Source: Escherichia phage C6. From it: a stretch of 64,000 nucleotides of DNA. The notes under the pieces were generated by a model. It worked only from the letters and a program-made list of their open reading frames with translations, was not told where the DNA came from and made no database searches. The stretch lies in sequence record MW679410.1. The stretch is one strand, 5' to 3'. Position 1 is the first letter of the stretch. Each line of letters starts with the position of its first letter. Below are positions 33 through 26,634 of this stretch, in pieces. Both the position numbers and the translations under genes were made by a program.

Positions 33-2243
33 TTAAGCCGCTTCCACGGCTTTCATGAATTTAACGATTTGAGCTACAGAAGCCTCGGTAATGGATGTTC
101 CACGACGATACATGTAGTCCGAAACTAAATGGTAATCAGATTCAAACTGTACAGTCATTTTATCATTGTTGCTTGAAGCATTATTGGTTAACGTATTAAA
201 CGTATTGTTACAAATTCTCTTGGTGATATTCAATTTATCATCAGTGATATATCCATGGAAATTCATATAACGGAATATATCATAGAAATTGCTCAGACGA
301 GTATATGTTTCAGACACCGGCTTATCACTGAAATATTTAGTCATAAAACCAAGCTCAGGGAACTTAGCAATGATTTCAAGATAATACCTTGCACGGGTAT
401 TACTGCCAATATAATCATCAATATCTACAGCATCTAATGCTTCGGCATAAGCTTCTAACGTGGTTTCCATCAAGCATTCGCACTGGCCTAACTTTTTAAT
501 CTTTTTGGCAATCTGAGGGCGAATGATATGGAATTCGGTAGCACCAATCAAATTAGCCATACGGCACATGGTAGTGGTATTGATGTCAAAGATACCATAA
601 GCTTCGTCCATTCCCATGATATCAGAACGGCTGCCAAACAGAACATAACCGGTAATTTCTTCTGCTTCAGCTGCGGTCAAATACATGGTCTCTGTTTGCC
701 AACGCCCATCTTTAATGAACCAACGATAAGCACTTGGTGTTTTAGGACGAGGTTCTGATGAACGGACAGTAACCGGAATCCATGGCTTAACAATTTTATT
801 CAGTTCAGAGACTTTATAAAAATGAATTGTATCACCTTTAAAAAGTTCTTTAACCTTTTCAAGCTGCTGCATTTGCAGCAAAGAATTAGGGTCGACGAAA
901 ATAAGGTCAGTTCCGTATTTAGGAATATTGTGCTCTTTAACAATTTTCTTGGCTGAAGCGCTGTTGTCCATTGCCAGCGCCCAGAGTCCTCGAACTAATG
1001 GCACACGACCCTTTTCATCATCATAAACAACATGGATTTCTTTCTTATTAATGCCTAATAAGCCGCTAAGTCCTGCTACTGAAGAAGTATTACCACTCGG
1101 CTTAATTCGTTTCAAACGCGGGTCCATACAAACTTCATAAACAACGCCTAAATTAAGAAGGTCGTTTTGAAGTGTATAACGCTGGTATAATTTCTCGTAT
1201 GTTAATTTTTCAGTTGTGAACTGTTTAGTAATGCCTCTTTTAGAAAGATAATCACGGGCACTATAACCAAGGTTAGAGAGGTCACGATAAACATGGCGCG
1301 GATTATCAGATTCAACCCATTCCCGTGTATCGTTTTTAAAGACTACCGCATCTAGTGCTTCAATACGGGTTGCAATATTTTCCATTGTACGTTTATCAAG
1401 AGACAGCACTTCACGAGATGGAGCGATATCTAACGAACCCATAGGGAACTTAATATAAACTACATCATGGCGAGTACGCATCCATGTGCCTTTATTATAA
1501 GCTGAATCTAATGGGTAGACGATGCCACCATAAACTGCATAAAGACCTGAACGTTCGAAATCGCCATAACCTGTATCGGTTACCGGGTAGTAGTCTTCGA
1601 ATTCAGGGAAATAATCAACTTCAGCACCGTCAACATCGCCAAGTCCAATGAAAGGCCGCATGATATAACGAACTTCAGTTTCGAACTTACGGAAGTCTTC
1701 TTCGTCCACAGGAACTGTTATTTCGATACCTGTTTTATCACCTGGCTGCATAGGTTCGACGAAAGTAGGTTTAATCTGCGGCCCATCACCGTCCATATAC
1801 GCTACATATCCACGAACTTCGCCATTGTGCCATGAGGTGATATTAAACGTTTCGGTATAACTGAACGGAGATTTTGAACCAAGGCCAAAGCCACCGATAA
1901 AATCGTTAGAAGCTGTTTTGGATGATGCGAAATAAGAGTTATACAAACCCGTTTCGTTTTCATCACCACGAATTTGGAAATCACTCATGCCCGGCCCGAA
2001 ATCACGGCATACGAAACGTGGGTCCAGTTTACCAGGAACCTGTACTTTCCAACGTTCTTTATTACCATTCAGAATATGGGCGTCAATCATATTAGTAATT
2101 AGTTCACGTACTACAGCACGTACTTTATTACTATAAAGGTCTGATGACAGAATTTTAAAGACCTTAGGCGATGCCTGGATAGTAAAGCCTGTGGACTTAG
2201 CACCATTACCAATGATTTGTTCTTTTTCGGTTTCGATAATCAT
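33..2243 (-). CDS. rIIA: rIIA protein (membrane-associated, GHKL-like ATPase N-terminus)
   Basis: 736-aa ORF; length and sequence match my recollection of T4 rIIA; first gene of the T4 map. Confidence 0.9.
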   Translation of the reverse strand: MIIETEKEQIIGNGAKSTGFTIQASPKVFKILSSDLYSNKVRAVVRELITNMIDAHILNGNKERWKVQVPGKLDPRFVCRDFGPGMSDFQIRGDENETGLYNSYFASSKTASNDFIGGFGLGSKSPFSYTETFNITSWHNGEVRGYVAYMDGDGPQIKPTFVEPMQPGDKTGIEITVPVDEEDFRKFETEVRYIMRPFIGLGDVDGAEVDYFPEFEDYYPVTDTGYGDFERSGLYAVYGGIVYPLDSAYNKGTWMRTRHDVVYIKFPMGSLDIAPSREVLSLDKRTMENIATRIEALDAVVFKNDTREWVESDNPRHVYRDLSNLGYSARDYLSKRGITKQFTTEKLTYEKLYQRYTLQNDLLNLGVVYEVCMDPRLKRIKPSGNTSSVAGLSGLLGINKKEIHVVYDDEKGRVPLVRGLWALAMDNSASAKKIVKEHNIPKYGTDLIFVDPNSLLQMQQLEKVKELFKGDTIHFYKVSELNKIVKPWIPVTVRSSEPRPKTPSAYRWFIKDGRWQTETMYLTAAEAEEITGYVLFGSRSDIMGMDEAYGIFDINTTTMCRMANLIGATEFHIIRPQIAKKIKKLGQCECLMETTLEAYAEALDAVDIDDYIGSNTRARYYLEIIAKFPELGFMTKYFSDKPVSETYTRLSNFYDIFRYMNFHGYITDDKLNITKRICNNTFNTLTNNASSNNDKMTVQFESDYHLVSDYMYRRGTSITEASVAQIVKFMKAVEAA

Positions 2244-2250
2244 ATTTTTC

Positions 2251-2454
2251 TCAATTCAGGTTACGTTTAAAAAGGTCTGCCACTTCAAGGAGCTCGTCCT
2301 TAGTAGCGATGTCGTTGAGTATTTTATATCTGATTTCTTTAAAGCGTTCTTTAAAATCCTCAGCCGCATTGATATCAAAAAATCGTTGGATTAACCGGAA
2401 TTCTTTATGGACGGCTTTATCGAACAAATCAATATTCACTTTAAAGTTTGTCAT
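2251..2454 (-). CDS. rIIA.1-like small protein
   Basis: 67-aa ORF immediately upstream of rIIA, same strand; synteny with T4 rIIA.1. Confidence 0.6.
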   Translation of the reverse strand: MTNFKVNIDLFDKAVHKEFRLIQRFFDINAAEDFKERFKEIRYKILNDIATKDELLEVADLFKRNLN

Positions 2455-2791
2455 TTTTAACTACCTCATGTTGAACATATTCTCTGGTAGAACCTAGTTC
2501 AGCCAGAATTCTTCTCATAGAACCCATTGTACTTTTGTGCTCTCTGTGGCGATACATTATCTCTAAAACCTTTTCCTGGACAACAGGAGAGAGCGCCTGG
2601 TTATCTTTAATCTTTAAGGCAATAGATTTTACAGCCTTAAGGTATTCAAGTCCCTTACCGCTTGTAGTCACTACTCCTTCATCTTTACAGTTACGAATAG
2701 CCGTTTCCATAAAGGATAAAGCCAGGTTGTCAGTATTCACTATACTGTTATCTTGCATAATCATATTCTCACCTCTAGATAATCCTATCAC
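2441..2791 (-). CDS. hypothetical protein, 116 aa, possible helix-turn-helix
   Basis: ORF between rIIA.1 and the topoisomerase gene; no equivalent at this position in T4 as I recall; C-terminal segment STMGSMRRILAELGSTREYV is HTH-like. Confidence 0.5.
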   Translation of the reverse strand: MIGLSRGENMIMQDNSIVNTDNLALSFMETAIRNCKDEGVVTTSGKGLEYLKAVKSIALKIKDNQALSPVVQEKVLEIMYRHREHKSTMGSMRRILAELGSTREYVQHEVVKNDKL

Positions 2792-2817
2792 AGTTTTGTT
2801 ATGTTGTAAACCCCGAA

Positions 2818-2835
2818 AAGGGCCTTGCGGCCCTT
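2818..2835 (-). other. RNA stem-loop (GNRA loop)
   Basis: Minus-strand AAGGGCC-GCAA-GGCCCUU between the small ORF and the 116-aa ORF. Confidence 0.4.
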
Positions 2836-2837
2836 AA

Positions 2838-2990
2838 TTATTCAATTTTGTAGACTTGTCCTCGAACTTGATAAAATTCGCCTTCCCAGGTTTCTACCAT
2901 AATGGTCACGTACTCTGCGAACAAAGGTCTCTTCTCAGCCCAGAGATATCCAAATTCACCGGTGGCTAGCGTTATCCAGTACTTTCTCAT
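2838..2990 (-). CDS. small hypothetical protein (50 aa)
   Basis: Hand-translated ORF MRKYWITLATGEF...VYKIE with AGGAG 6 nt upstream of ATG; fills the gap between gene 39 and the 116-aa ORF. Confidence 0.35.
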   Translation of the reverse strand: MRKYWITLATGEFGYLWAEKRPLFAEYVTIMVETWEGEFYQVRGQVYKIE

Positions 2991-3033
2991 AAAGTCTCCT
3001 AATTGTATGGCACTCATGTACCATACATATTTA

Positions 3034-4851
3034 TTACGACATCCAGGCCTTACGGAGTTGAGGGTCGTTTCCTAGGAGCATTTCGAACTGTTCTTTCCAA
3101 TCTTCAGGCAATTGAACTACATCAAATTTAGGGTCTTGAATCATTCGACGGTATTCGGCCTTCTCAAGAGAACCTAGTCCTTTGATATAACGAATAGAAT
3201 GTTTTGGTAGAGAGTCCTTAGCTTTGGTATAACTAGGAACATCATAGAACCATTCCTGTTCTTTACCGACCTGAGCAATAATCACTGGGGTTTTACAGAA
3301 TCGTACTCGGCCTTGTTCAAACAATTCAGGCCATTGACTAAAGAAGGCTAGCAATGATGGATAAATCGAACCAGTACCATCCACATCGGCATCAGTCATG
3401 ATAGCGATATTACGATAGTTAGTTTTCTCTGCAGGTTCACCAATAACCAGTCCAGTGATTGCACAGATATCAAATAGTTCCTTGTTCTTCATGATATCTG
3501 TTGCTGTCATTCCCCAGGTATTCATAACCTTACCACGTAATGGATACCCGCCTTGAAGGTCTTTATTACGAACTTCAATGAAAGGACCCATAGCGGAATC
3601 ACCTTCGGTTAGGAACAGGGTTGTATCAGCATCTTTGCCGTATAAGTTAGCTTTAATATGCTTATGGACCTTGGCTTTAGAAGCTTTCTTAGCGGCTTTA
3701 GTTTCAGCAGCCTTTTCAGCTGCTAATTTACGTGCTAAAGCAGCTTCAACGATAGGCATAATCAACCCTTCGTCTTTAAGAATATACTGTGAGATTTTCT
3801 TTGCATCAATTTGAATATGGTTACGAATTTCACCGAATGGTGACGTCAAACGTTCTTTAGTCTGGGAATCAAAACGCATATTACTCATATCGCGAATGAA
3901 CATCAGCATAGTTAAGCATTCTTTAACTCGTGCCTTACTTACTTCGATGCCTTTATATTTCTTCTTGATGCCTGGCAAGAGATGTTCGCAGATATCATCA
4001 AACACACATTCAACATGATGACCACCATTCTTAGTATGAATGTTATTTACATAAGTCAGTTGACGGAATCCATCTGGAGATGTAGTAAATGCCATTGAGA
4101 CATTATCGGTTTCTTGAATTACTACATCTTTACCAAATTGATTAGCATACTTTTTAAAGTTACCATCTACTTTTTTACCATTAAAAGTAAATTGGATACT
4201 AGGATAAATTACAGCTAGAGTTTTAAGACGATCTAGAGTAATATCCAGATAAATTTGTGACAGGCTATTTTCTTCGAAATGGCTAAAGTCTGGAGTGAAT
4301 ATAACCGAAGTACCCTTACCTTTAGATTTCTTAGTAGACCAACCTTTGTTTTCCATTCCATTAGAACAGTTGACAGTAATCTCATTCTCGCCATCAGAGG
4401 TGATGCCTGTAAACAAAACAGAGAAGATATTAGTTAAACTACTACCGACACCATTCATGCCGCCTGTCTTACGCTCTGCGTCATCTCCAAAGTTACCACC
4501 TGCCTTTGGGATAGTCCATGCAGCTACAGGACCTGGGATTTGTTCACCGTTTTGGTCGATGACCATTGCTTGTGGAATACCACGACCATTATCAGAAACT
4601 GAAACCTGGTTATTCTTAATTTGAACATCAATTTTATTTGCGAATTTAAAATTGGTACGAATAGCTTCATCGACAGAGTTATCAATGATTTCGTCAATTA
4701 ATTTAACCAGTCCAGGAACATAGTTTACCTGTGTAAAATTACCAAACAGGAATCGACCGTGAGCTTCATTAGCACTGGAGCCAATATACATCCCACTACG
4801 TTTTTTGATATGTTCAATGTCGGACAGTACTTTAATTTCATTCTTAATCAT
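3034..4851 (-). CDS. 39: DNA topoisomerase II large subunit, gp39 fused to gp60 region (GyrB-like ATPase plus Toprim)
   Basis: 605-aa ORF; N-terminus is GHKL ATPase; C-terminus carries the IAIMTDADVDGTGSIYPSLL...GLGSLEKAEY segment that in T4 belongs to gp60. Confidence 0.9.
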   Translation of the reverse strand: MIKNEIKVLSDIEHIKKRSGMYIGSSANEAHGRFLFGNFTQVNYVPGLVKLIDEIIDNSVDEAIRTNFKFANKIDVQIKNNQVSVSDNGRGIPQAMVIDQNGEQIPGPVAAWTIPKAGGNFGDDAERKTGGMNGVGSSLTNIFSVLFTGITSDGENEITVNCSNGMENKGWSTKKSKGKGTSVIFTPDFSHFEENSLSQIYLDITLDRLKTLAVIYPSIQFTFNGKKVDGNFKKYANQFGKDVVIQETDNVSMAFTTSPDGFRQLTYVNNIHTKNGGHHVECVFDDICEHLLPGIKKKYKGIEVSKARVKECLTMLMFIRDMSNMRFDSQTKERLTSPFGEIRNHIQIDAKKISQYILKDEGLIMPIVEAALARKLAAEKAAETKAAKKASKAKVHKHIKANLYGKDADTTLFLTEGDSAMGPFIEVRNKDLQGGYPLRGKVMNTWGMTATDIMKNKELFDICAITGLVIGEPAEKTNYRNIAIMTDADVDGTGSIYPSLLAFFSQWPELFEQGRVRFCKTPVIIAQVGKEQEWFYDVPSYTKAKDSLPKHSIRYIKGLGSLEKAEYRRMIQDPKFDVVQLPEDWKEQFEMLLGNDPQLRKAWMS

Positions 4852-14676: not shown

Positions 14677-15198
14677 TTAATAACCTCGGTCTTGACGAGC
14701 AAAGTTCTCAGCATTTTTCAGGTAATACAACTTAAAGATTTCTTCAGCAGTCAGACCAAGACCTTGGAACATATTCAGAACAAAGTGCAGAATATCAATC
14801 ATCTCGAATTTAATTTCAAGCTGGTCTTCAGGAGAGAGTTCGTCAATACGACGGTTACGGAATTCACCGTGCTGAGCTTTCCAAGGCTTCCAGACGCTAG
14901 ATGCGGCTTTCTCACCATTACTCATGCCACCAAGAGAAGTCAACAGTTCACGGAATTCGTCATCAATATAATCTTTCTGGTTGCGAAGCCAATCGACAAC
15001 TTGACCTGCAGTAGCCAGTTCATCGGGGTTAGAGTTAAATTCAGATTTTTCAGTAGCCAAACGGACCTGTAATGATTTCTGCATATCAAGCATAACCTGC
15101 AGAGGGTCTTTATCTTCGTGAATCAAAGCATTAAAATAAGCTTCCTCAGCTTTATCAACACCAGCAATAAGTTGTGAGCATTCGTTAAAGTGTGCCAT
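14677..15198 (-). CDS. 56: dCTP pyrophosphatase gp56 (MazG-like)
   Basis: 173 aa; position and size match T4 gp56. Confidence 0.8.
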   Translation of the reverse strand: MAHFNECSQLIAGVDKAEEAYFNALIHEDKDPLQVMLDMQKSLQVRLATEKSEFNSNPDELATAGQVVDWLRNQKDYIDDEFRELLTSLGGMSNGEKAASSVWKPWKAQHGEFRNRRIDELSPEDQLEIKFEMIDILHFVLNMFQGLGLTAEEIFKLYYLKNAENFARQDRGY

Positions 15199-20333: not shown

Positions 20334-20647
20334 CTCTTAGATTTAATTTTATCCAGTTCTTCTTGTATTTGCATTGTAACACATTTTTCTACATGAAGCG
20401 CTAGCTCTTCTTTTCGGTCTTCGGAAGGTGTTCCGAAATCAACCGACACTTTTCCATCTTTCTCAATAACAATATTCATCACATAAACGATGTGAGCAGT
20501 GCCATCGGGTAAAGTAAGCATAATTTCCTGCTTAACAGAACCCATTGACTTACGGATTATATCTAATGATTTCTCATAATAACGAGGGTCACTAGGACCC
20601 TCTTCGGCATCTTTAACAAAATTATCTAAATCAGATAAATCAGTCAT
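20318..20647 (-). CDS. 40: gp40-position protein (109 aa)
   Basis: Between 41 and uvsX as in T4; identity by synteny only. Confidence 0.5.
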   Translation of the reverse strand: MTDLSDLDNFVKDAEEGPSDPRYYEKSLDIIRKSMGSVKQEIMLTLPDGTAHIVYVMNIVIEKDGKVSVDFGTPSEDRKEELALHVEKCVTMQIQEELDKIKSKRWWKW

Positions 20648-21821
20648 GGTCGCTCACAAAATTCATGTTTTCTAAATCGCTTTCGATGTCAGCAGCGCTT
20701 TGGGTATTTCCACCTAATTTAACAGCAACGTTCTTAGAGACACGAGAGTTAATAAGGTCGTTCACTGCATCGTCAACTTCTTTAATAGAATTAATTGCAC
20801 CAAGCTTATACTTATTCTCGATTGCTTCACGGAACGGAGCGTGTTTAAACAGCGGTCCCCAGAACTCAACACAATCGGTAGCTTTAGCACGCCATGCTTT
20901 TTCTTCTTGAACCATTTCACCCGTGGTTTCGTCAAGGAATGCACGATTATACCAACCAGCTTTAGGTTTCACTACAAAGCCGATATCAGTAGCCATTTCA
21001 AGCAATCCACTGAACGGGTCGATACCGCCTTCAAAGTTAACGGTGATAGGGAACGTTGACTTCTCTTTAACCGTACGAGATTTCTCAGCCTTCAGTGTGA
21101 AGTCATAACCGGTGAGCTCAGTACCATCTTTAACCTGGCGTTTAGAGATAAAGAATACGGTAGACGCAGAATAAAGAATACCAGTACCACCACCCATAAT
21201 CTCTTTAGGATACATTCCACCAATTTCCATAGCCGTGTGGTTAATTGCTACACAAGGGATATCTTTGATGGTCAGATAAGGTGTTACGATACGGAACAGA
21301 GATTTCAGTGACTTAGCACGAGTCATATCACCTACAACTTTCTCGTTCAAAGCATCTTCGGTTTCTTTCTTAGAAGCAGTGTTACCAATGGAGTCGATAA
21401 AGATAATAACCTTTTCGCCACGAGTAATTTCTTCTAACTGGTTAGTCATATCAACTTTAAGCTGTTCGACTGACTGGATTGGTGTATGAACCACACGTTC
21501 CAAATCAACACCCATCGAACGGAAATAAGATTCTGAAGCACCAAACTCAGAGTCATAGAACAAACAAATTGCGTCTGGATATTTCTTCATATATGCCGCA
21601 ACCATGGTAAGTCCAAACAACGTTTTAAAGTGTTTAGATGGAGCAGCAAAGATTGTCAAACCTGATTGTAAGCCTGCATTCAACGCACCACCTAATGCAA
21701 TATTCAGCATAGGGATACGAGTAGGAACTTCGTCACGACCATTAAACAATTTAGATTTGGTCAGGTCGGCAGTCATTTTAGAAGTAGAAGCTTTAATCAA
21801 ACGGGATTTTAAATCAGACAT
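20640..21821 (-). CDS. uvsX: UvsX recombinase (RecA/Rad51 family)
   Basis: 393 aa; RecA-fold ATPase; T4 UvsX length. Confidence 0.9.
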   Translation of the reverse strand: MSDLKSRLIKASTSKMTADLTKSKLFNGRDEVPTRIPMLNIALGGALNAGLQSGLTIFAAPSKHFKTLFGLTMVAAYMKKYPDAICLFYDSEFGASESYFRSMGVDLERVVHTPIQSVEQLKVDMTNQLEEITRGEKVIIFIDSIGNTASKKETEDALNEKVVGDMTRAKSLKSLFRIVTPYLTIKDIPCVAINHTAMEIGGMYPKEIMGGGTGILYSASTVFFISKRQVKDGTELTGYDFTLKAEKSRTVKEKSTFPITVNFEGGIDPFSGLLEMATDIGFVVKPKAGWYNRAFLDETTGEMVQEEKAWRAKATDCVEFWGPLFKHAPFREAIENKYKLGAINSIKEVDDAVNDLINSRVSKNVAVKLGGNTQSAADIESDLENMNFVSDHD

Positions 21822-21898
21822 TATATTTTTCCATAGGCATCATTATATTTTACTCACGTTTTAAGATAGGGTAATTATATCACTTCATATTTACAGCG

Positions 21899-22792
21899 TT
21901 AAAGGACCACGTCCTCATAACTTGGCATTTCGTGCTCAGAATGGATATGGGCACCGAAATAAATGAATTCAGCTAGACCAGGATGGAATACTAAATCAGG
22001 ATTCTCATGATAAATGATATGGGGTCTTGATTTCAGAATCTGATAATATTCAACCTTACTCGGTTTGAATTTAATAATCTCTACATCAGGGCGATAGTCT
22101 TCACGCTTAAATGAATCATTCGGATCGGTGATGTAAAGACGAGCACCTTCAGCCGCGGCTTGGTCTACAACTCTTTCGAATTGATAACATTTATCTGAGA
22201 TACGGAATGGATGGAAAATACCATCAATTTTAATAGGCGCTAGACCTTCAGAGTAACGCTCAATTACTGCCGGATTAATTACCTTTTGGTCTACAAAAAT
22301 CTTATCAGAGGATGCACCTCGTGACACCAGGACGTCTTTCTGGCATTGATTCAGGACTGTAGTATAAATCGAACGTTCAACTGAAGACACGTCGATATCA
22401 ATGAACTCATCAATATAATAACGAGGAACTTCAGGGTCCATTGTAATGTTAAAGTTGAATTGTACAGTCTGAGCACCATCATAACCTGTGATATCGGTTA
22501 CCAATCCTGAGCAGTCATAGTATTCGATTAACGAATCAACAACGAACTCATTTTCAGACCAAAAATGTTTACGAGTTTCATAAGCATTTTCTTTATACCA
22601 GAGTGGTACAAAATTCAGTTCAGGAAATAATTCAATGCATTCTTTGATATCGCTCGAATTTCTAGGATAAGCCAGATAATCACCTGGGCAAGCACGGTTT
22701 AAATGGAGTTGAAAATTGCCGTCCTTAAGGACGGCATATTCACCTGTTTCGTAACTACGCATACTGAAAATAGGAACGATAAACAAACTCAT
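21899..22792 (-). CDS. hypothetical protein (297 aa) occupying the T4 beta-glucosyltransferase locus; candidate DNA-modifying transferase
   Basis: ORF between uvsX and gene 42, where T4 has beta-gt; no similarity by eye to T4 beta-gt; function inferred from position only. Confidence 0.65.
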   Translation of the reverse strand: MSLFIVPIFSMRSYETGEYAVLKDGNFQLHLNRACPGDYLAYPRNSSDIKECIELFPELNFVPLWYKENAYETRKHFWSENEFVVDSLIEYYDCSGLVTDITGYDGAQTVQFNFNITMDPEVPRYYIDEFIDIDVSSVERSIYTTVLNQCQKDVLVSRGASSDKIFVDQKVINPAVIERYSEGLAPIKIDGIFHPFRISDKCYQFERVVDQAAAEGARLYITDPNDSFKREDYRPDVEIIKFKPSKVEYYQILKSRPHIIYHENPDLVFHPGLAEFIYFGAHIHSEHEMPSYEDVVL

Positions 22793-23487
22793 TTCAGGAA
22801 TCCTCGAACGTAGTCAAAATCACGTTCAAATACGTGTGCACTAACCATAGTATGGGAATACGTGCCCAGACCAACACCACACTGTTCAGCAATAAAGGCC
22901 ATCAGTTTACCCTGCAGATAGAAATCCAGCTGCATAACGATAGCACAGTTCTGTGAACGCATATGAGTGTGTGCATACAGACGTCCATCACGAATATAAT
23001 ATGTTACCGAATCGGTACATGGATATTCTAGGGATTCGTCAGAATCAAGGAGGGCTTGGTCTTGTTCTTGGAGAATTTGGAACACAACTCTTCGCGAGTT
23101 AGGCTTTTCTTTAAGCTCTTTAAGTAAGGCTGGGAGTTGGGCCACAATTCGAGGTCCATAGAAAGTGTTGAAGTTTGCAGGCAATACGTCACTTTTCGGC
23201 TTATCAATGAACTTAGCAACATTAGGATATTCCTTAAATGCTTCGGCGGCATCAGTACCACCAGAAATCATAAATTTCCAGAAAGATTCGGCATAATCAT
23301 AGTTGATACGATTAATGCGGGGATCGGTGAATTTGTAAGTGCTTGCATCCAGAACTTCAACTGAAGCCGAACCAATTTCATAACAACGACCGATACGAGA
23401 ATCAACTGCAAACTGTGGAGCTTCCAGGATTTCTTCGTTCATTTGCTTAAACGCGTTTTCAAAACTAACAGCGGTAATGTGTTTCAT
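22789..23487 (-). CDS. 42: dCMP hydroxymethylase-like enzyme (thymidylate synthase fold)
   Basis: 232 aa; TS-family motifs NSRRVVFQ, catalytic-Cys context YPCTDSV, MRSQN...QLD with Asp at the cytosine-specifying position; diverged from T4 gp42. Confidence 0.75.
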   Translation of the reverse strand: MKHITAVSFENAFKQMNEEILEAPQFAVDSRIGRCYEIGSASVEVLDASTYKFTDPRINRINYDYAESFWKFMISGGTDAAEAFKEYPNVAKFIDKPKSDVLPANFNTFYGPRIVAQLPALLKELKEKPNSRRVVFQILQEQDQALLDSDESLEYPCTDSVTYYIRDGRLYAHTHMRSQNCAIVMQLDFYLQGKLMAFIAEQCGVGLGTYSHTMVSAHVFERDFDYVRGFLK

Positions 23488-24020
23488 TTATTCACCTTAT
23501 TTTCAATATATTCATTCAGACGTTTTAATTCTACCATATCGACGTTAAGCAAGTTATTATGACCGTCATGGTTTAAAACTTTAAAAACATTTTTAAAACA
23601 GTCTTCATATTTCTGGATAGTTAGGTTGAACTCATCTTTGGTCAATTTAATAAGGTCATCTTCGAAGTCTTCATCCAATGGATTACGGGTTAAAATAACC
23701 TCAATAATATTGAATTCAGATTTAAACCCTTTCCAATCTTCCAATTCTACATAAGGGTCCATTTCACCGCGAAGGAATCCAGAGTAAACAATATTACTAG
23801 GATATCCACGGTCTAAGATGTAGACAAAATTAGGGTCTAAAAACTTATATAAGGTTTCGACTAAAGCCTTATCATTATCAGTCCCTATTGAAATGCACTT
23901 ACCATTAATCTTTTTAGGAAAATCAATAAGACGATATTTCTTATCAGACAAAAGTGATTCAATTAAAGTAGACTTCCCGGAATTATCCGGGCCGTCGATA
24001 ACAATGATTTTTGGTTTCAC
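23484..24020 (-). CDS. thymidylate-kinase-like dNMP kinase (P-loop)
   Basis: 178 aa; Walker A GPDNSGKST and DRGY motif resembling the TMK DRY motif. Confidence 0.65.
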   Translation of the reverse strand: MKPKIIVIDGPDNSGKSTLIESLLSDKKYRLIDFPKKINGKCISIGTDNDKALVETLYKFLDPNFVYILDRGYPSNIVYSGFLRGEMDPYVELEDWKGFKSEFNIIEVILTRNPLDEDFEDDLIKLTKDEFNLTIQKYEDCFKNVFKVLNHDGHNNLLNVDMVELKRLNEYIENKVNK

Positions 24021-24415
24021 GGATGATATGCCTTATAGGTTTCAAGAGTTCCTTCACGAACCATTTCTTTAAAGTGGTCAGGACGGATTGCTCGGTCATC
24101 GATGATAAAAGTATAACTCGGCTTATGTGTAAGCAGATTATGATATTTCAATCCAATCTTTTCAAGGTTCTTAACCAATGCAGGAACTACTTCAACCAAG
24201 ATTCGACCAGGTCCACATGAAGTCATGCCACGAGCAGTGAACAGCGTAATCTCATAACCTTCGTCATAAAGCTTATTAATCATGGACACCATTTCGGTGT
24301 CCGGTTTAAAGTTTTCGTAATCACGGTCATGGTTCCAAACCGTGATTGTATTATCGATGTCAAAACATAAATGGGGCTTATTTTCTACTCGATGCGACAT
24401 TAAATTTTCTTCCAT
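24017..24415 (-). CDS. small HAD-superfamily phosphatase
   Basis: 132 aa; motif I DIDNTIT (DxDxT). Confidence 0.65.
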   Translation of the reverse strand: MEENLMSHRVENKPHLCFDIDNTITVWNHDRDYENFKPDTEMVSMINKLYDEGYEITLFTARGMTSCGPGRILVEVVPALVKNLEKIGLKYHNLLTHKPSYTFIIDDRAIRPDHFKEMVREGTLETYKAYHP

Positions 24416-26073
24416 TGTTTGTGGAGTTCAGTAGAACCTGTAGGTTTATATTTTACACCAGTTTCTTGGTCAAGCAAAACCCACTTATCAGGACAACGAG
24501 TGATAATTTGGGCCGTGATAGGGTCACGAACTTCATCGACGAATTCACCTGTAATAAGCTTACGCTTGCGAGGATGCCGCTTCAGCAGCACACTCAGTTG
24601 ATATAAACCATTGTAATAAGCACCCAGAGCTTTCAGAGGGTTATTTTTAAAGTAACCTGCCAATGCCATCCAGATAACAGCAATCCAGAGCTTGTGCTTA
24701 AATGTACACATTGGAATATCATCTAAAGGCATAACCTTTTCAATATCAACGAATACACGAGTTCCGTTACGAGTTAAGCCACCCCATAGAGGGTCAGAGT
24801 TAAATTTGTCATACCCATCGATAGAATAAAGCACCTTAGCTTCATCATAAATCGCAGGGCCTTTAGAACTATTACCAAAATAACCACGTGGGTCGATGAT
24901 TTTAATATCACCTTCGTCCGACAACATAATATTACTGTAGTGCGGGTCACCGTGAATAAGTTGGTACGGTTCTTTATGTTCAGACAGAATTTCTAAGGCG
25001 TGGCGAAGAAGTTTTTCAGGGTCGCCTACCTTAAAGTCATTGACATGGGTAATACCCTGTGGAGCAAAGCCTTCAATCAATCCAGCAATAGAAGCATTAC
25101 GAATAAGGACCTTGTCCAATACTTCTTTCTTAACATCGGAATACCATTGCTCATCGGATGGATTATCGATAGTCCCACCGAATGAACGTAATGCACTAAT
25201 AACCTTATAAACCATGAGGACTTTAGTTTCTTTAGACATGAACCGATAGGCATCTGCCATAGTACGACCAAAGATACGTTCCATTTTAATGAATTCACCT
25301 GGAGCAAAGTCTACAATGCTCGGAACGAATTCAGAATCAATAGAATTATACCAATTGATTTCTTTAGATTGGATTTCTTTACCTAATTCGTTGGTAGGTA
25401 CTTTAATAGCCAGATTCTCAGTGAACTCTAATTTATTAAATTCACGGTTAATTTCGGATTCTTCATGGGCCTTAGCCAGTTTCAGTTTGTCACCGACATC
25501 AACTACAAAGTCTAGCTTACGTTCGGTCAAATGGACCATTGAATCCAGGTTGTCGGCAAGGTCTTCACCATAATTAGAGCGGTTGAAACCTGTCCAATTA
25601 GCCACCTGATACAAACCAACCACACCGCCACCGGTACCAATTTCACGCAGGTACGGTTCTTCAAATGTAAAACGACAGTCAGTCCCGTAGGTATAACAGT
25701 AGTCGTTATCCCACTCAACTTTATGACCCTCAGGAATGATGTCACACCAGTTAAACAGGACATTGTGCCCGATAATATCTTCAGCAATGCAATCAATAGC
25801 ATGAGCTGAACCATTGGCGACATCTACGTTACGAATAGTGAATTTAGGCTTATCACTATTAATCATGTTAATGGATTTAATGTAACCCTTAACGAGGTCA
25901 TTAAATTTGCTGTGAATAACCAGAATAATTTCATCTGATTGATTACTATACAAATCATACAAATGTTTTAATACAGTATGTTGTTTGTAGTTAACCAGTA
26001 CCTTCGGGATTTCGTTAGTAATTGGATACAACCGTGAGCCAAGACCCGCGCCTAAAATAACAACCTTTTTCAT
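24400..26073 (-). CDS. bifunctional sugar-1-phosphate nucleotidyltransferase (N-terminal) and APH/choline-kinase-like sugar kinase (C-terminal)
   Basis: Start moved to MKKVVILGAGLGSRLYPIT (GxGxR NTP-transferase motif; GAGGA SD); C-terminal HGDPHYSNIML...DIKIIDPRG is the catalytic loop of the APH/ChoK/MtnK kinase family. Confidence 0.8.
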   Translation of the reverse strand: MKKVVILGAGLGSRLYPITNEIPKVLVNYKQHTVLKHLYDLYSNQSDEIILVIHSKFNDLVKGYIKSINMINSDKPKFTIRNVDVANGSAHAIDCIAEDIIGHNVLFNWCDIIPEGHKVEWDNDYCYTYGTDCRFTFEEPYLREIGTGGGVVGLYQVANWTGFNRSNYGEDLADNLDSMVHLTERKLDFVVDVGDKLKLAKAHEESEINREFNKLEFTENLAIKVPTNELGKEIQSKEINWYNSIDSEFVPSIVDFAPGEFIKMERIFGRTMADAYRFMSKETKVLMVYKVISALRSFGGTIDNPSDEQWYSDVKKEVLDKVLIRNASIAGLIEGFAPQGITHVNDFKVGDPEKLLRHALEILSEHKEPYQLIHGDPHYSNIMLSDEGDIKIIDPRGYFGNSSKGPAIYDEAKVLYSIDGYDKFNSDPLWGGLTRNGTRVFVDIEKVMPLDDIPMCTFKHKLWIAVIWMALAGYFKNNPLKALGAYYNGLYQLSVLLKRHPRKRKLITGEFVDEVRDPITAQIITRCPDKWVLLDQETGVKYKPTGSTELHKQWKKI

Positions 26074-26133
26074 TATCTGTTCCTCAAGTGAATGTAGGTA
26101 CATTATACACTATTTTTAATAAATTGGTATTGC

Positions 26134-26634
26134 TTAAATCTTATCTTTACCGATTTCAATACACTGTTCTATTGCCGCCGGTACTTTGGTCTTGAGCTTA
26201 TTGATTTGTTTCTTATAATCACGGGCCTTATCAAAGCTTTCGGTTTCGAGCATTTCGTAATAACGAGCCTCATGGATGGAAATCTGTAGATTGATATGAT
26301 TTACGCACATCGCATACAGTTTCTGTTTTTTGTACAAATCGTCTTGACGCTTCATTTCTGCCTGGTGTTTGGCTAGTACCGCTTCACGCTTGGACTCTTG
26401 TTCACGTTGGAATTCAATTTCCCTTTGAGCATATTTTGCACAGTTATTACCGCATTGATTATTAGCTCGGGTATACACAAGTCCAGAACCTGCACGGAAT
26501 TTCATTTCGCCATCGAATTGTTTCTGTTCAGCTGCGATACGAGCTTTACCAACTTCATCAGCCGAAACTGCATCACCATATTGGACCGCGCAACCTGATA
26601 GGAGCATACTCATTGCGATAATTAACTTTTTCAT
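26134..26634 (-). CDS. putative lipoprotein (166 aa)
   Basis: Signal peptide with lipobox LLSGCA; coiled-coil-like remainder. Confidence 0.65.
   Translation of the reverse strand: MKKLIIAMSMLLSGCAVQYGDAVSADEVGKARIAAEQKQFDGEMKFRAGSGLVYTRANNQCGNNCAKYAQREIEFQREQESKREAVLAKHQAEMKRQDDLYKKQKLYAMCVNHINLQISIHEARYYEMLETESFDKARDYKKQINKLKTKVPAAIEQCIEIGKDKI

Follow-up and report, generated by a model that had tools for sequence, protein, structure and literature searches.

GT1 of Escherichia phage C6, a compact GT-B glycosyltransferase predicted to attach the first arabinose to 5-hydroxycytosine in Dhakaviruses

In bacteriophage T4 the interval between uvsX and gene 42 holds segA and b-gt, and the locus described here raises the question of what another phage keeps in that place. 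The window, that is, the whole stretch of 64,000 nucleotides (nt) from Escherichia phage C6 (record MW679410.1), contains there an open reading frame (ORF) of 297 amino acids (aa), which we call GT1. An earlier note on this DNA had proposed it as a novel DNA sugar transferase, next to a hydroxymethylase and acting on 5-hydroxymethylcytosine (hmC). In this paper we place GT1 in a phage protein family by homology searches, model its fold, examine the genes that accompany it, and weigh the reactions that it might catalyse. The answer that we favour is a glycosyltransferase of the GT-B type which would join the first arabinose to 5-hydroxycytosine.

Between uvsX (20640..21821) and a thymidylate-synthase homologue GT1 is the sole ORF of at least 50 aa on either strand, as the earlier note had said, and since the corresponding interval of T4 is that of segA and b-gt, the positional equivalence of GT1 to b-gt holds. 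GT1 has an ATG start with a GAGGA Shine-Dalgarno sequence 8-9 nt 5' of it, and this start codon overlaps, as ATGA, the TGA stop of the preceding synthase gene. It belongs to a single module of five co-oriented genes (21899-26103, minus strand) joined by stop/start overlaps, and the 5.6-kilobase (kb) region is 95-97% identical to that of the Dhakavirus coliphages AnYang, IME341, IME08, Bp7, MX01, WG01 and QL01. That GT1 is a genuine gene and not a chance ORF follows from its homologues, from a match to phrog_3891 (E 2e-158, residues 1-296), which no other protein family joined, and from a confident structural model.

A tblastn search found homologues of GT1, with identities of 23-99%, in 350 phage records, and in a large protein collection they form 117 clusters. 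The family is small: 247 clusters were recovered by a profile search of 1.84 billion representative proteins. Over its full length GT1 is 64-69% identical to RB69 ORF046c+ORF047c, which are one gene (gp46:47) split through a sequencing error, 66% identical to the HY126 homologue (XAN60474) and 51% identical to TH1_063 of Shewanella phage Thanatos; identity to the Acinetobacter phage homologues is about 49%. Judged from these alignments, GT1 is the Dhakavirus orthologue of the RB69 gp46:47 / DLP3 gp79 / Thanatos TH1_063 family. The DNA of RB69 and DLP3 carries arabinofuranose (Araf) chains ether-linked to 5-hydroxycytosine (Lee et al., NAR 2026, PMC13326640), the RB69 modification being beta-D-Araf-(1,3)-alpha-D-Araf-O-5-dC with alpha-D-Araf as the base-proximal sugar, and the same authors name RB69 gp46:47 and DLP3 gp79 as putative first arabinosyltransferases ('alpha-arabinosyltransferase 1') and list the Dhakaviruses among the phage groups with a syntenic cluster (PMC13326640). 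The family and the Dhakavirus cluster were thus already described in 2025-2026, and the novelty claimed in the earlier note falls away; what is new here is comparative, namely the presence of the family in Rhizobium phage RL38J1 and the metagenomic fusions to dTMP-kinase-like and KdsC-like domains.

Sequence searches were blind to the fold of GT1, which was revealed by structure prediction only. No family of Pfam (E up to 1) or NCBIfam matched, in agreement with the earlier note, which had recognised no motif; a PDB sequence search with GT1 alone found no match, and hidden Markov model (HMM) comparison with CAZy GT4/Pfam Glycos_transf_1 (PF00534), PF13439 and Glyco_trans_4 gave none of significance. 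The AlphaFold model built from a diverse alignment has a mean predicted local distance difference test score (pLDDT) of 94.9 and a predicted template modelling score (pTM) of 0.89 and shows two Rossmann-like halves. All 50 of the 50 matches listed by Foldseek against PDB are GT-B enzymes, either glycosyltransferases or sugar 2-epimerases acting on uridine diphosphate (UDP)-sugars, and the matches in BFVD are members of the GT1 family first and then mostly group-1 glycosyltransferases. GT1 thus has both marks of the GT-B superfamily, the two Rossmann-like beta/alpha/beta domains with a cleft between them and the likeness to known GT-B enzymes, and the structure-based search for a transferase fold that the earlier note had recommended turned out positive. 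As modelled, GT1 is a small GT-B glycosyltransferase whose structural type is that of the retaining, GT4-like enzymes.

The closest folds, among them sucrose-phosphate synthase and MshA, act on phosphorylated small molecules. The bacterial retaining GT4-type enzymes (sucrose-phosphate synthase 6kih, BshA, MshA, PimA and WaaG) are only 8-11% identical to GT1, so that the likeness is structural only; GT1 is smaller than these enzymes, and its predicted acceptor is a nucleobase. The beta- and alpha-glucosyltransferases of T4 show no detectable sequence similarity to GT1, for which homology to their families GT63 (b-gt) and GT72 (a-gt) was not found, and T4 b-gt is its positional analogue. In comparison with the T4 enzymes GT1 is 50-100 residues shorter, its predicted acceptor is a hydroxyl at ring position 5 and not a hydroxymethyl group, and its predicted sugar is a pentofuranose and not glucose.

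Positions conserved in the family alignment are M11-R12-S13 after the first strand, D24-G25-N26, N69-A70-x-x-T73-R74, F193-x-P195-F196-R197-x-S199-D200, T222-D223-P224-N225, K246 and H270-P271-G272; E275, which follows the last of these, appears conserved from a reading of the alignment by eye and lies outside the computed list of conserved columns. By analogy with GT4 enzymes and T4 alpha-glucosyltransferase, the diphosphate and the ribose of UDP may be bound by R197/K246 and E275; the assignments of R12, R197, K246, H270 and E275 rest on conservation, not superposition.

The gene that precedes GT1 bears on the acceptor. Its product matches PDB 9iqu/9iqc/9ir2, which going by the accession run we take to be the solved HY126 synthase, with E of about 1.5e-125, as against E 5e-6 for T4 deoxycytidine monophosphate (dCMP) hydroxymethylase, and it is about 80% identical to the HY126 enzyme, 79% to RB69 ORF048c and 25% to T4 gp42. 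Aligned with E. coli ThyA and T4 gp42 it carries RSQN (D169N), L143E and N177D, whereas T4 gp42 keeps D169. The thymidylate-synthase homologue of RB69, gp48, is a flavin-dependent 5-hydroxy-dCMP synthase, and the activity of the RB69 and HY126 synthases is reported together with the D169N signature (Lee et al., NAR 2026, PMC13326640). By these comparisons the neighbour of GT1 is a 5-hydroxy-dCMP synthase, not a dCMP hydroxymethylase; the acceptor is therefore expected to be 5-hydroxycytosine, with its hydroxyl directly on C5, and not the hmC of the earlier note.

The remaining genes of the module (Table 1) fit a sugar branch and a nucleotide kinase. The kinase belongs to phrog_761, has weak matches to Thymidylate_kin and cmk, and is 37% identical to RB69 ORF045c; no role for the dTMP-kinase-like kinase linked to GT1 was found in the literature searched. 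The HAD phosphatase matches PDB 9iqw (E 3.9e-55) and the capsule biosynthesis phosphatase family TIGR01689 (E 1.6e-14) and is 63% identical to RB69 ORF051c (gp51). We take 9iqw to be the AfhF enzyme of HY126 because its accession falls within the run 9iqu-9iqz around an entry titled 'phage HY126 glycosyltransferase', and the phosphatase is predicted to convert arabinofuranose-1,5-bisphosphate to arabinofuranose-1-phosphate, the function reported for HY126 AfhF (PMC13326640). The AfhE-like protein has Pfam NTP_transferase at residues 13-110 and APH at residues 356-427, matches phrog_4098, and is 41-44% identical to RB69 ORF052c/053c (gp52:53); its true start may be an internal ATG at about 26073. 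It is predicted to make UDP-arabinofuranose, HY126 AfhE being reported to phosphorylate arabinose-5-phosphate and to make UDP-arabinose by a pyrophosphorylase activity (PMC13326640).

Table 1. Location of GT1 and of the genes discussed with it, in window coordinates
Feature	Coordinates	Strand	Support
GT1, compact GT-B glycosyltransferase, predicted base-proximal (first) arabinosyltransferase on 5-hydroxycytosine	21899..22792	-	
5-hydroxy-dCMP synthase, flavin-dependent (thymidylate-synthase homologue), would make the acceptor base	22789..23487	-	PDB matches, D169N
dTMP-kinase-like P-loop kinase (RB69 ORF045c family)	23484..24020	-	phrog_761, weak Pfam matches
HAD phosphatase, AfhF-like	24017..24415	-	PDB 9iqw, TIGR01689
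Nucleotidyltransferase + APH-type kinase, AfhE-like, 567 aa	24400..26103	-	Pfam NTP_transferase, APH
gp56-type dCTPase/dUTPase, accessory	14677..15198	-	Pfam dUTPase_2 and PRA-PH

In the pathway that we propose, the synthase encoded immediately upstream of GT1 would make 5-hydroxy-dCMP from dCMP, while the AfhE-like kinase/uridylyltransferase and the AfhF-like phosphatase would turn D-arabinose-5-phosphate into UDP-D-arabinofuranose. The gp56-type enzyme would supply dCMP and remove deoxycytidine triphosphate (dCTP), a role read across from established T4 biology. D-arabinose-5-phosphate would presumably come from the host enzymes KdsD and GutQ, because the phage lacks an isomerase of its own; in E. 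coli both make this compound, which the host needs for the synthesis of 3-deoxy-D-manno-octulosonic acid (Kdo). GT1 would then transfer arabinofuranose to the 5-hydroxyl of 5-hydroxycytosine in a base-proximal alpha-O-glycosidic (ether) linkage, retention of configuration giving the alpha linkage of the base-proximal sugar of RB69. With one arabinose on each of its cytosines, the DNA would be shielded from restriction and CRISPR nucleases.

Whether a second transferase accompanies GT1 was examined by tblastn, with E up to 10 for the isomerase and the ORF003c-type transferase, in the window and in the rest of AnYang (about 105 kb). No homologue of RB69 ORF003c, of the RB69 arabinose-5-phosphate isomerase or of the U32-like ORF050c was found in either, and T4 b-gt and a-gt gave nothing significant, in keeping with the earlier note, which had seen no likeness of the ORF to beta-gt. 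Homologues of ORF003c occur in 212 phage records, from Mosigvirus-type coliphages, Acinetobacter phages and one Tegunavirus, and in no Dhakavirus. ORF003c and the HY126 glycosyltransferase (PDB 9iqz), a 366-aa protein proposed to add the second arabinose, are not detectably related to GT1 (hhalign of the family profile against RB69 ORF003c, probability 0.3%); probably they are of the 'Aat' type of Mahler et al. The only large hypothetical protein of AnYang (340 aa) was considered as a glycosyltransferase and rejected, as it is DUF7275/DUF7277. On these searches GT1 is the only glycosyltransferase detectable in Dhakavirus. In comparison with the RB69/HY126 cluster the Dhakavirus cluster lacks the isomerase, the U32-like gene and the second transferase, and its kinase gene lies on the other side of the synthase from that of RB69; the D169N synthase and the AfhE-like and AfhF-like enzymes are shared, the latter two at 41-63% identity to the RB69 proteins. 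By gene content, then, it is a reduced variant of the arabinosyl-5-hydroxycytosine cluster of RB69/HY126. Because no second transferase was found beside GT1, we predict that Dhakavirus DNA is mono-arabinosylated, each cytosine bearing one arabinose. Mono-arabinosylation is also described for Thanatos, a phage with one glycosyltransferase of the GT1 family (PMC13326640).

The family reaches beyond these phages. In RL38J1, a Rhizobium phage of the Pootjesviridae whose DNA carries galactose/glucose chains on 5-hydroxycytosine, gp215 ('galactosyltransferase 1') is a homologue of GT1 (hhalign 99.3%, E 4e-20; local HMM E 7e-29) and has in common with it the motifs SMRSYETG, DGN, NAxExR, FPFR(I/L)SD and TDPN. 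A D169N synthase (gp216) lies upstream of it and a dTMP-kinase-like gene (gp214; kinase profile E 1e-7) downstream, an order of synthase, GT1 homologue and kinase that is also found in the metagenomic contig L006. The protein differs from GT1 in belonging to another phage family, in its length of 343 aa, in an identity of only about 26% over the aligned part, and in its base-proximal sugar, which is a hexose (galactose). This comparison suggests that the GT1 family goes with the acceptor base, whatever the phage family or the sugar.

Linkage of GT1 to the synthase and the kinase is seen in RB69, HY126, Thanatos, RL38J1 and two divergent metagenomic contigs, L006 and L007, which are from jumbo phages and, with a third contig, L008, encode proteins 33-40% identical to GT1. 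The order in L006 is thymidylate-synthase homologue, GT1, kinase, and in L007 it is isomerase, AfhE-like gene, synthase, one ORF of 200 aa, GT1 and kinase; in L008 GT1 adjoins a U32-like gene. Synthase, GT1 and kinase stand in this order in the jumbo-phage contigs at 35-40% identity. The numbers of records are nearly identical (GT1 350, kinase 343, AfhE-like 367), with matching organism counts, and the 343 records of the kinase have the same host breakdown as those of GT1. Extra domains were surveyed in the best 150 of the 247 cluster representatives from the profile search and were present in 18 of the 150. Nine have a dTMP-kinase-like domain fused to GT1, C-terminal in eight and N-terminal in one, and the neighbours of one GT1-kinase fusion are genes for a SIS isomerase, an AfhE-like protein and a U32-like protein. 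Six more of the 150, all metagenomic (P0131, P0145, P0151, P0168, P0169 and P0188), begin with a sugar phosphatase of the KdsC/YrbI type (TIGR01670, E 1e-12 to 7e-6); the AfhF-type HAD phosphatase was tried as the identity of this extension and its profile did not match. Through these fusions the family is tied on one side to the sugar branch and on the other to a nucleotide kinase, and those with KdsC hint at coupling to a different sugar-phosphate pathway, perhaps that of an ulosonic acid.

Several further observations concern these contexts. A kinase accompanies GT1 in every lineage examined (L003:3048-3596, L005:26359-26919, L006:9025-9576, L007:9125-9682 and L017:11792-12427). Genes for Flavodoxin_2 proteins, resembling NAD(P)H-dependent flavin reductases, occur near the synthase in L006 (6426-6932) and L007 (1-523), with none in the window cluster, and such neighbours fit the flavin-dependent hydroxylation reported for these synthases. 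The most distant context of GT1 (L008:9049-11220) has the U32-like gene (51% identity to RB69 ORF050c), then a gene with a faint Exostosin/GT47 match and next a DNA polymerase III alpha gene, and a thymidylate-synthase homologue was not seen within 8 kb.

Taken together, we give a probability of roughly three in four to the reading that GT1 transfers arabinofuranose from UDP-D-arabinofuranose to the 5-hydroxyl of 5-hydroxycytosine, the form of the acceptor being left open. The sugar-transferase candidate of the earlier note thus stands, on the GT-B fold, the block of genes for a nucleoside diphosphate (NDP)-sugar and the position of GT1 as the only detectable transferase, while its neighbour, its acceptor and its novelty do not. 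Several points weigh against our reading. At the sequence level GT1 matches no glycosyltransferase family in Pfam, NCBIfam or PDB, and even a profile of 48 homologues found no glycosyltransferase in PDB. The canonical EX7E spacing of GT4 enzymes is not evident in its sequence: E275 lies in the helix following the invariant H270-P271-G272, and the nearest upstream acidic residues by eye are E263/D266, not at -8. The identity of the sugar is extrapolated from an AfhE-like protein only 41-44% identical to that of RB69, in a cluster from which the isomerase and the U32-like gene are absent. No sugar transfer by any enzyme of the GT1 family, and no chemistry of Dhakavirus DNA, was found in the literature searched. 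DLP3 gp79, purified and used by itself, did not arabinosylate 5-hydroxycytosine DNA with UDP-Araf or UDP-arabinopyranose (data not shown by the authors; PMC13326640), and TH1_063, in which a glycosyltransferase fold was recognised, is nevertheless reported to turn UTP and xylose-1-phosphate into UDP-xylose in vitro (PMC12838424).

On the level at which GT1 acts the evidence is divided. Activity of any single DLP3 transferase on DNA that contains 5-hydroxycytosine was not detected, and the authors were unable to tell mononucleotide from DNA as the level of the first arabinosylation (PMC13326640). GT1 might arabinosylate free 5-hydroxy-dCMP before replication, with the dTMP-kinase-like partner phosphorylating the product and the phage polymerase incorporating it, which would leave the DNA level to any further sugars that some phages attach; we regard this as the less likely level, though as the likeliest of the rival readings. 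The adjacency of GT1 and the kinase gene from Straboviridae to Pootjesviridae speaks for it, as do the fusions in both orders in nine cluster representatives, one of them in a genuine cluster, although fusion shows functional coupling and not the order of steps. A T4-type deoxynucleoside monophosphate kinase already phosphorylates 5-hydroxy-dCMP, which leaves the extra kinase without a role in the standard scheme. The inactivity of the DLP3 orthologue on DNA also counts in its favour, but that negative was not shown and may be explained by an inactive protein or a missing partner. GT1 is acidic (isoelectric point (pI) 4.78, net charge -20; family median pI 5.2), as against pI 9.05 for T4 beta-glucosyltransferase; T4 alpha-glucosyltransferase, however, is also mildly acidic (pI 6.1), which makes charge weak evidence. 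The E. coli glycosylases Nth and Nei act on 5-hydroxycytosine that is left bare in DNA, and this we count for the mononucleotide, as we do the small phosphorylated substrates of the closest folds. Against it, all precedent favours DNA, and the later arabinoses are added on DNA.

The alternatives that change the sugar or the reaction have less in their favour. That GT1 is the first transferase on 5-hydroxycytosine and that Dhakavirus uses a sugar other than D-arabinofuranose is unlikely: the missing isomerase and U32-like gene, the modest identity of the AfhE-like protein, the hexose used by the family in RL38J1 and the fusion of some members to KdsC-type phosphatases would fit it, but against it stand the closeness of GT1 (67%) and of the phosphatase (63%) to their RB69 counterparts, the supply of arabinose-5-phosphate that E. 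coli makes as the host, and Thanatos, which is reported to carry a pentose and in which, too, the 30 kb surrounding the cluster show no isomerase. Were GT1 instead to produce the activated sugar by a UDP-pentose pyrophosphorylase activity, as reported for TH1_063 with its 51% full-length identity and its formation of UDP-xylose (PMC12838424), Dhakavirus and Thanatos would be left without any transferase; the fold is GT-B and not that of a nucleotidyltransferase, with no match to Pfam NTP_transferase or NCBIfam, and the genuine NTP_transferase domain lies in the adjacent AfhE-like protein, whose HY126 counterpart is reported to have that activity. As the Thanatos control was a no-enzyme one, carry-over of a host uridylyltransferase may account for the product, and we consider a pyrophosphorylase quite improbable. 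Still more improbable is a role for GT1 in the sugar pathway as an NDP-sugar 2-epimerase or as some other GT-B enzyme without transferase function, for although the best Foldseek matches in PDB by E value are non-hydrolysing UDP-N-acetylglucosamine 2-epimerases, their TM-scores are only about 0.5 and the genome would again be without a transferase. Scarcely credible, finally, is the label 'RNA polymerase binding protein', which orthologues bear in some RefSeq and GenBank records, those of IME341 and of a few Klebsiella and Morganella phages, where other Dhakavirus records have 'hypothetical protein'; GT1 has no similarity to T4 RpbA, fold and context are those of a glycosyltransferase, and the name looks like an error of annotation transfer.

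Other observations concern the region and its records. A promoter-like extended -10 site on the minus strand (21874-21902; TTAACG, a 17-nt spacer, TG and TATAAT) begins at the stop codon of GT1, directly upstream of uvsX, and may be due to chance. Counts from a promoter and terminator scan of the region were not above those of shuffled sequence, and therefore no regulatory conclusion is drawn. Between the AfhE-like gene and imm lies an ORF of 166 aa (26134-26634, minus strand; phrog_1754) with a lipoprotein-like N-terminus, MKKLIIAMSMLLSGC, at a position taken in RB69 by the arabinose-5-phosphate isomerase. RB69 ORF003c lies between rIIA.1 and the topoisomerase gene, and at the corresponding place in the window (2243-3034) there is only an ORF of 116 aa (2441-2791). 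Outside the window, AnYang has three tandem genes of about 700 aa each for Alt-like RNA polymerase ADP-ribosyltransferases (L010:21159-27419). Public records still call the synthase a thymidylate synthase or dCMP hydroxymethylase, and in RefSeq the names of two Dhakavirus orthologues look wrong, the HAD phosphatase being 'phosphoheptose isomerase' and GT1 'RNA polymerase binding protein'; such misleading database names need correcting.

Arabinosylated 5-hydroxycytosine is a newly recognised hypermodification of phage DNA that blocks type II restriction, the Brig1 glycosylase and type I CRISPR-Cas, and in the literature searched a single step still awaits reconstitution, the joining of the base to its first sugar. 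With one transferase, a minimal block of five overlapping genes and no second or third sugar, the Dhakaviruses are the simplest natural test system for this step. The fusions to a kinase raise the question of whether glycosylation comes before or after replication; action on the mononucleotide, if true, would give glycosylated DNA its first pre-replicative route and would explain both the second nucleotide kinase and the failed reconstitution of the first transferase on DNA. The reach of the family into Rhizobium phages with hexosylated 5-hydroxycytosine suggests that it is defined by its acceptor base, with the sugar varying.

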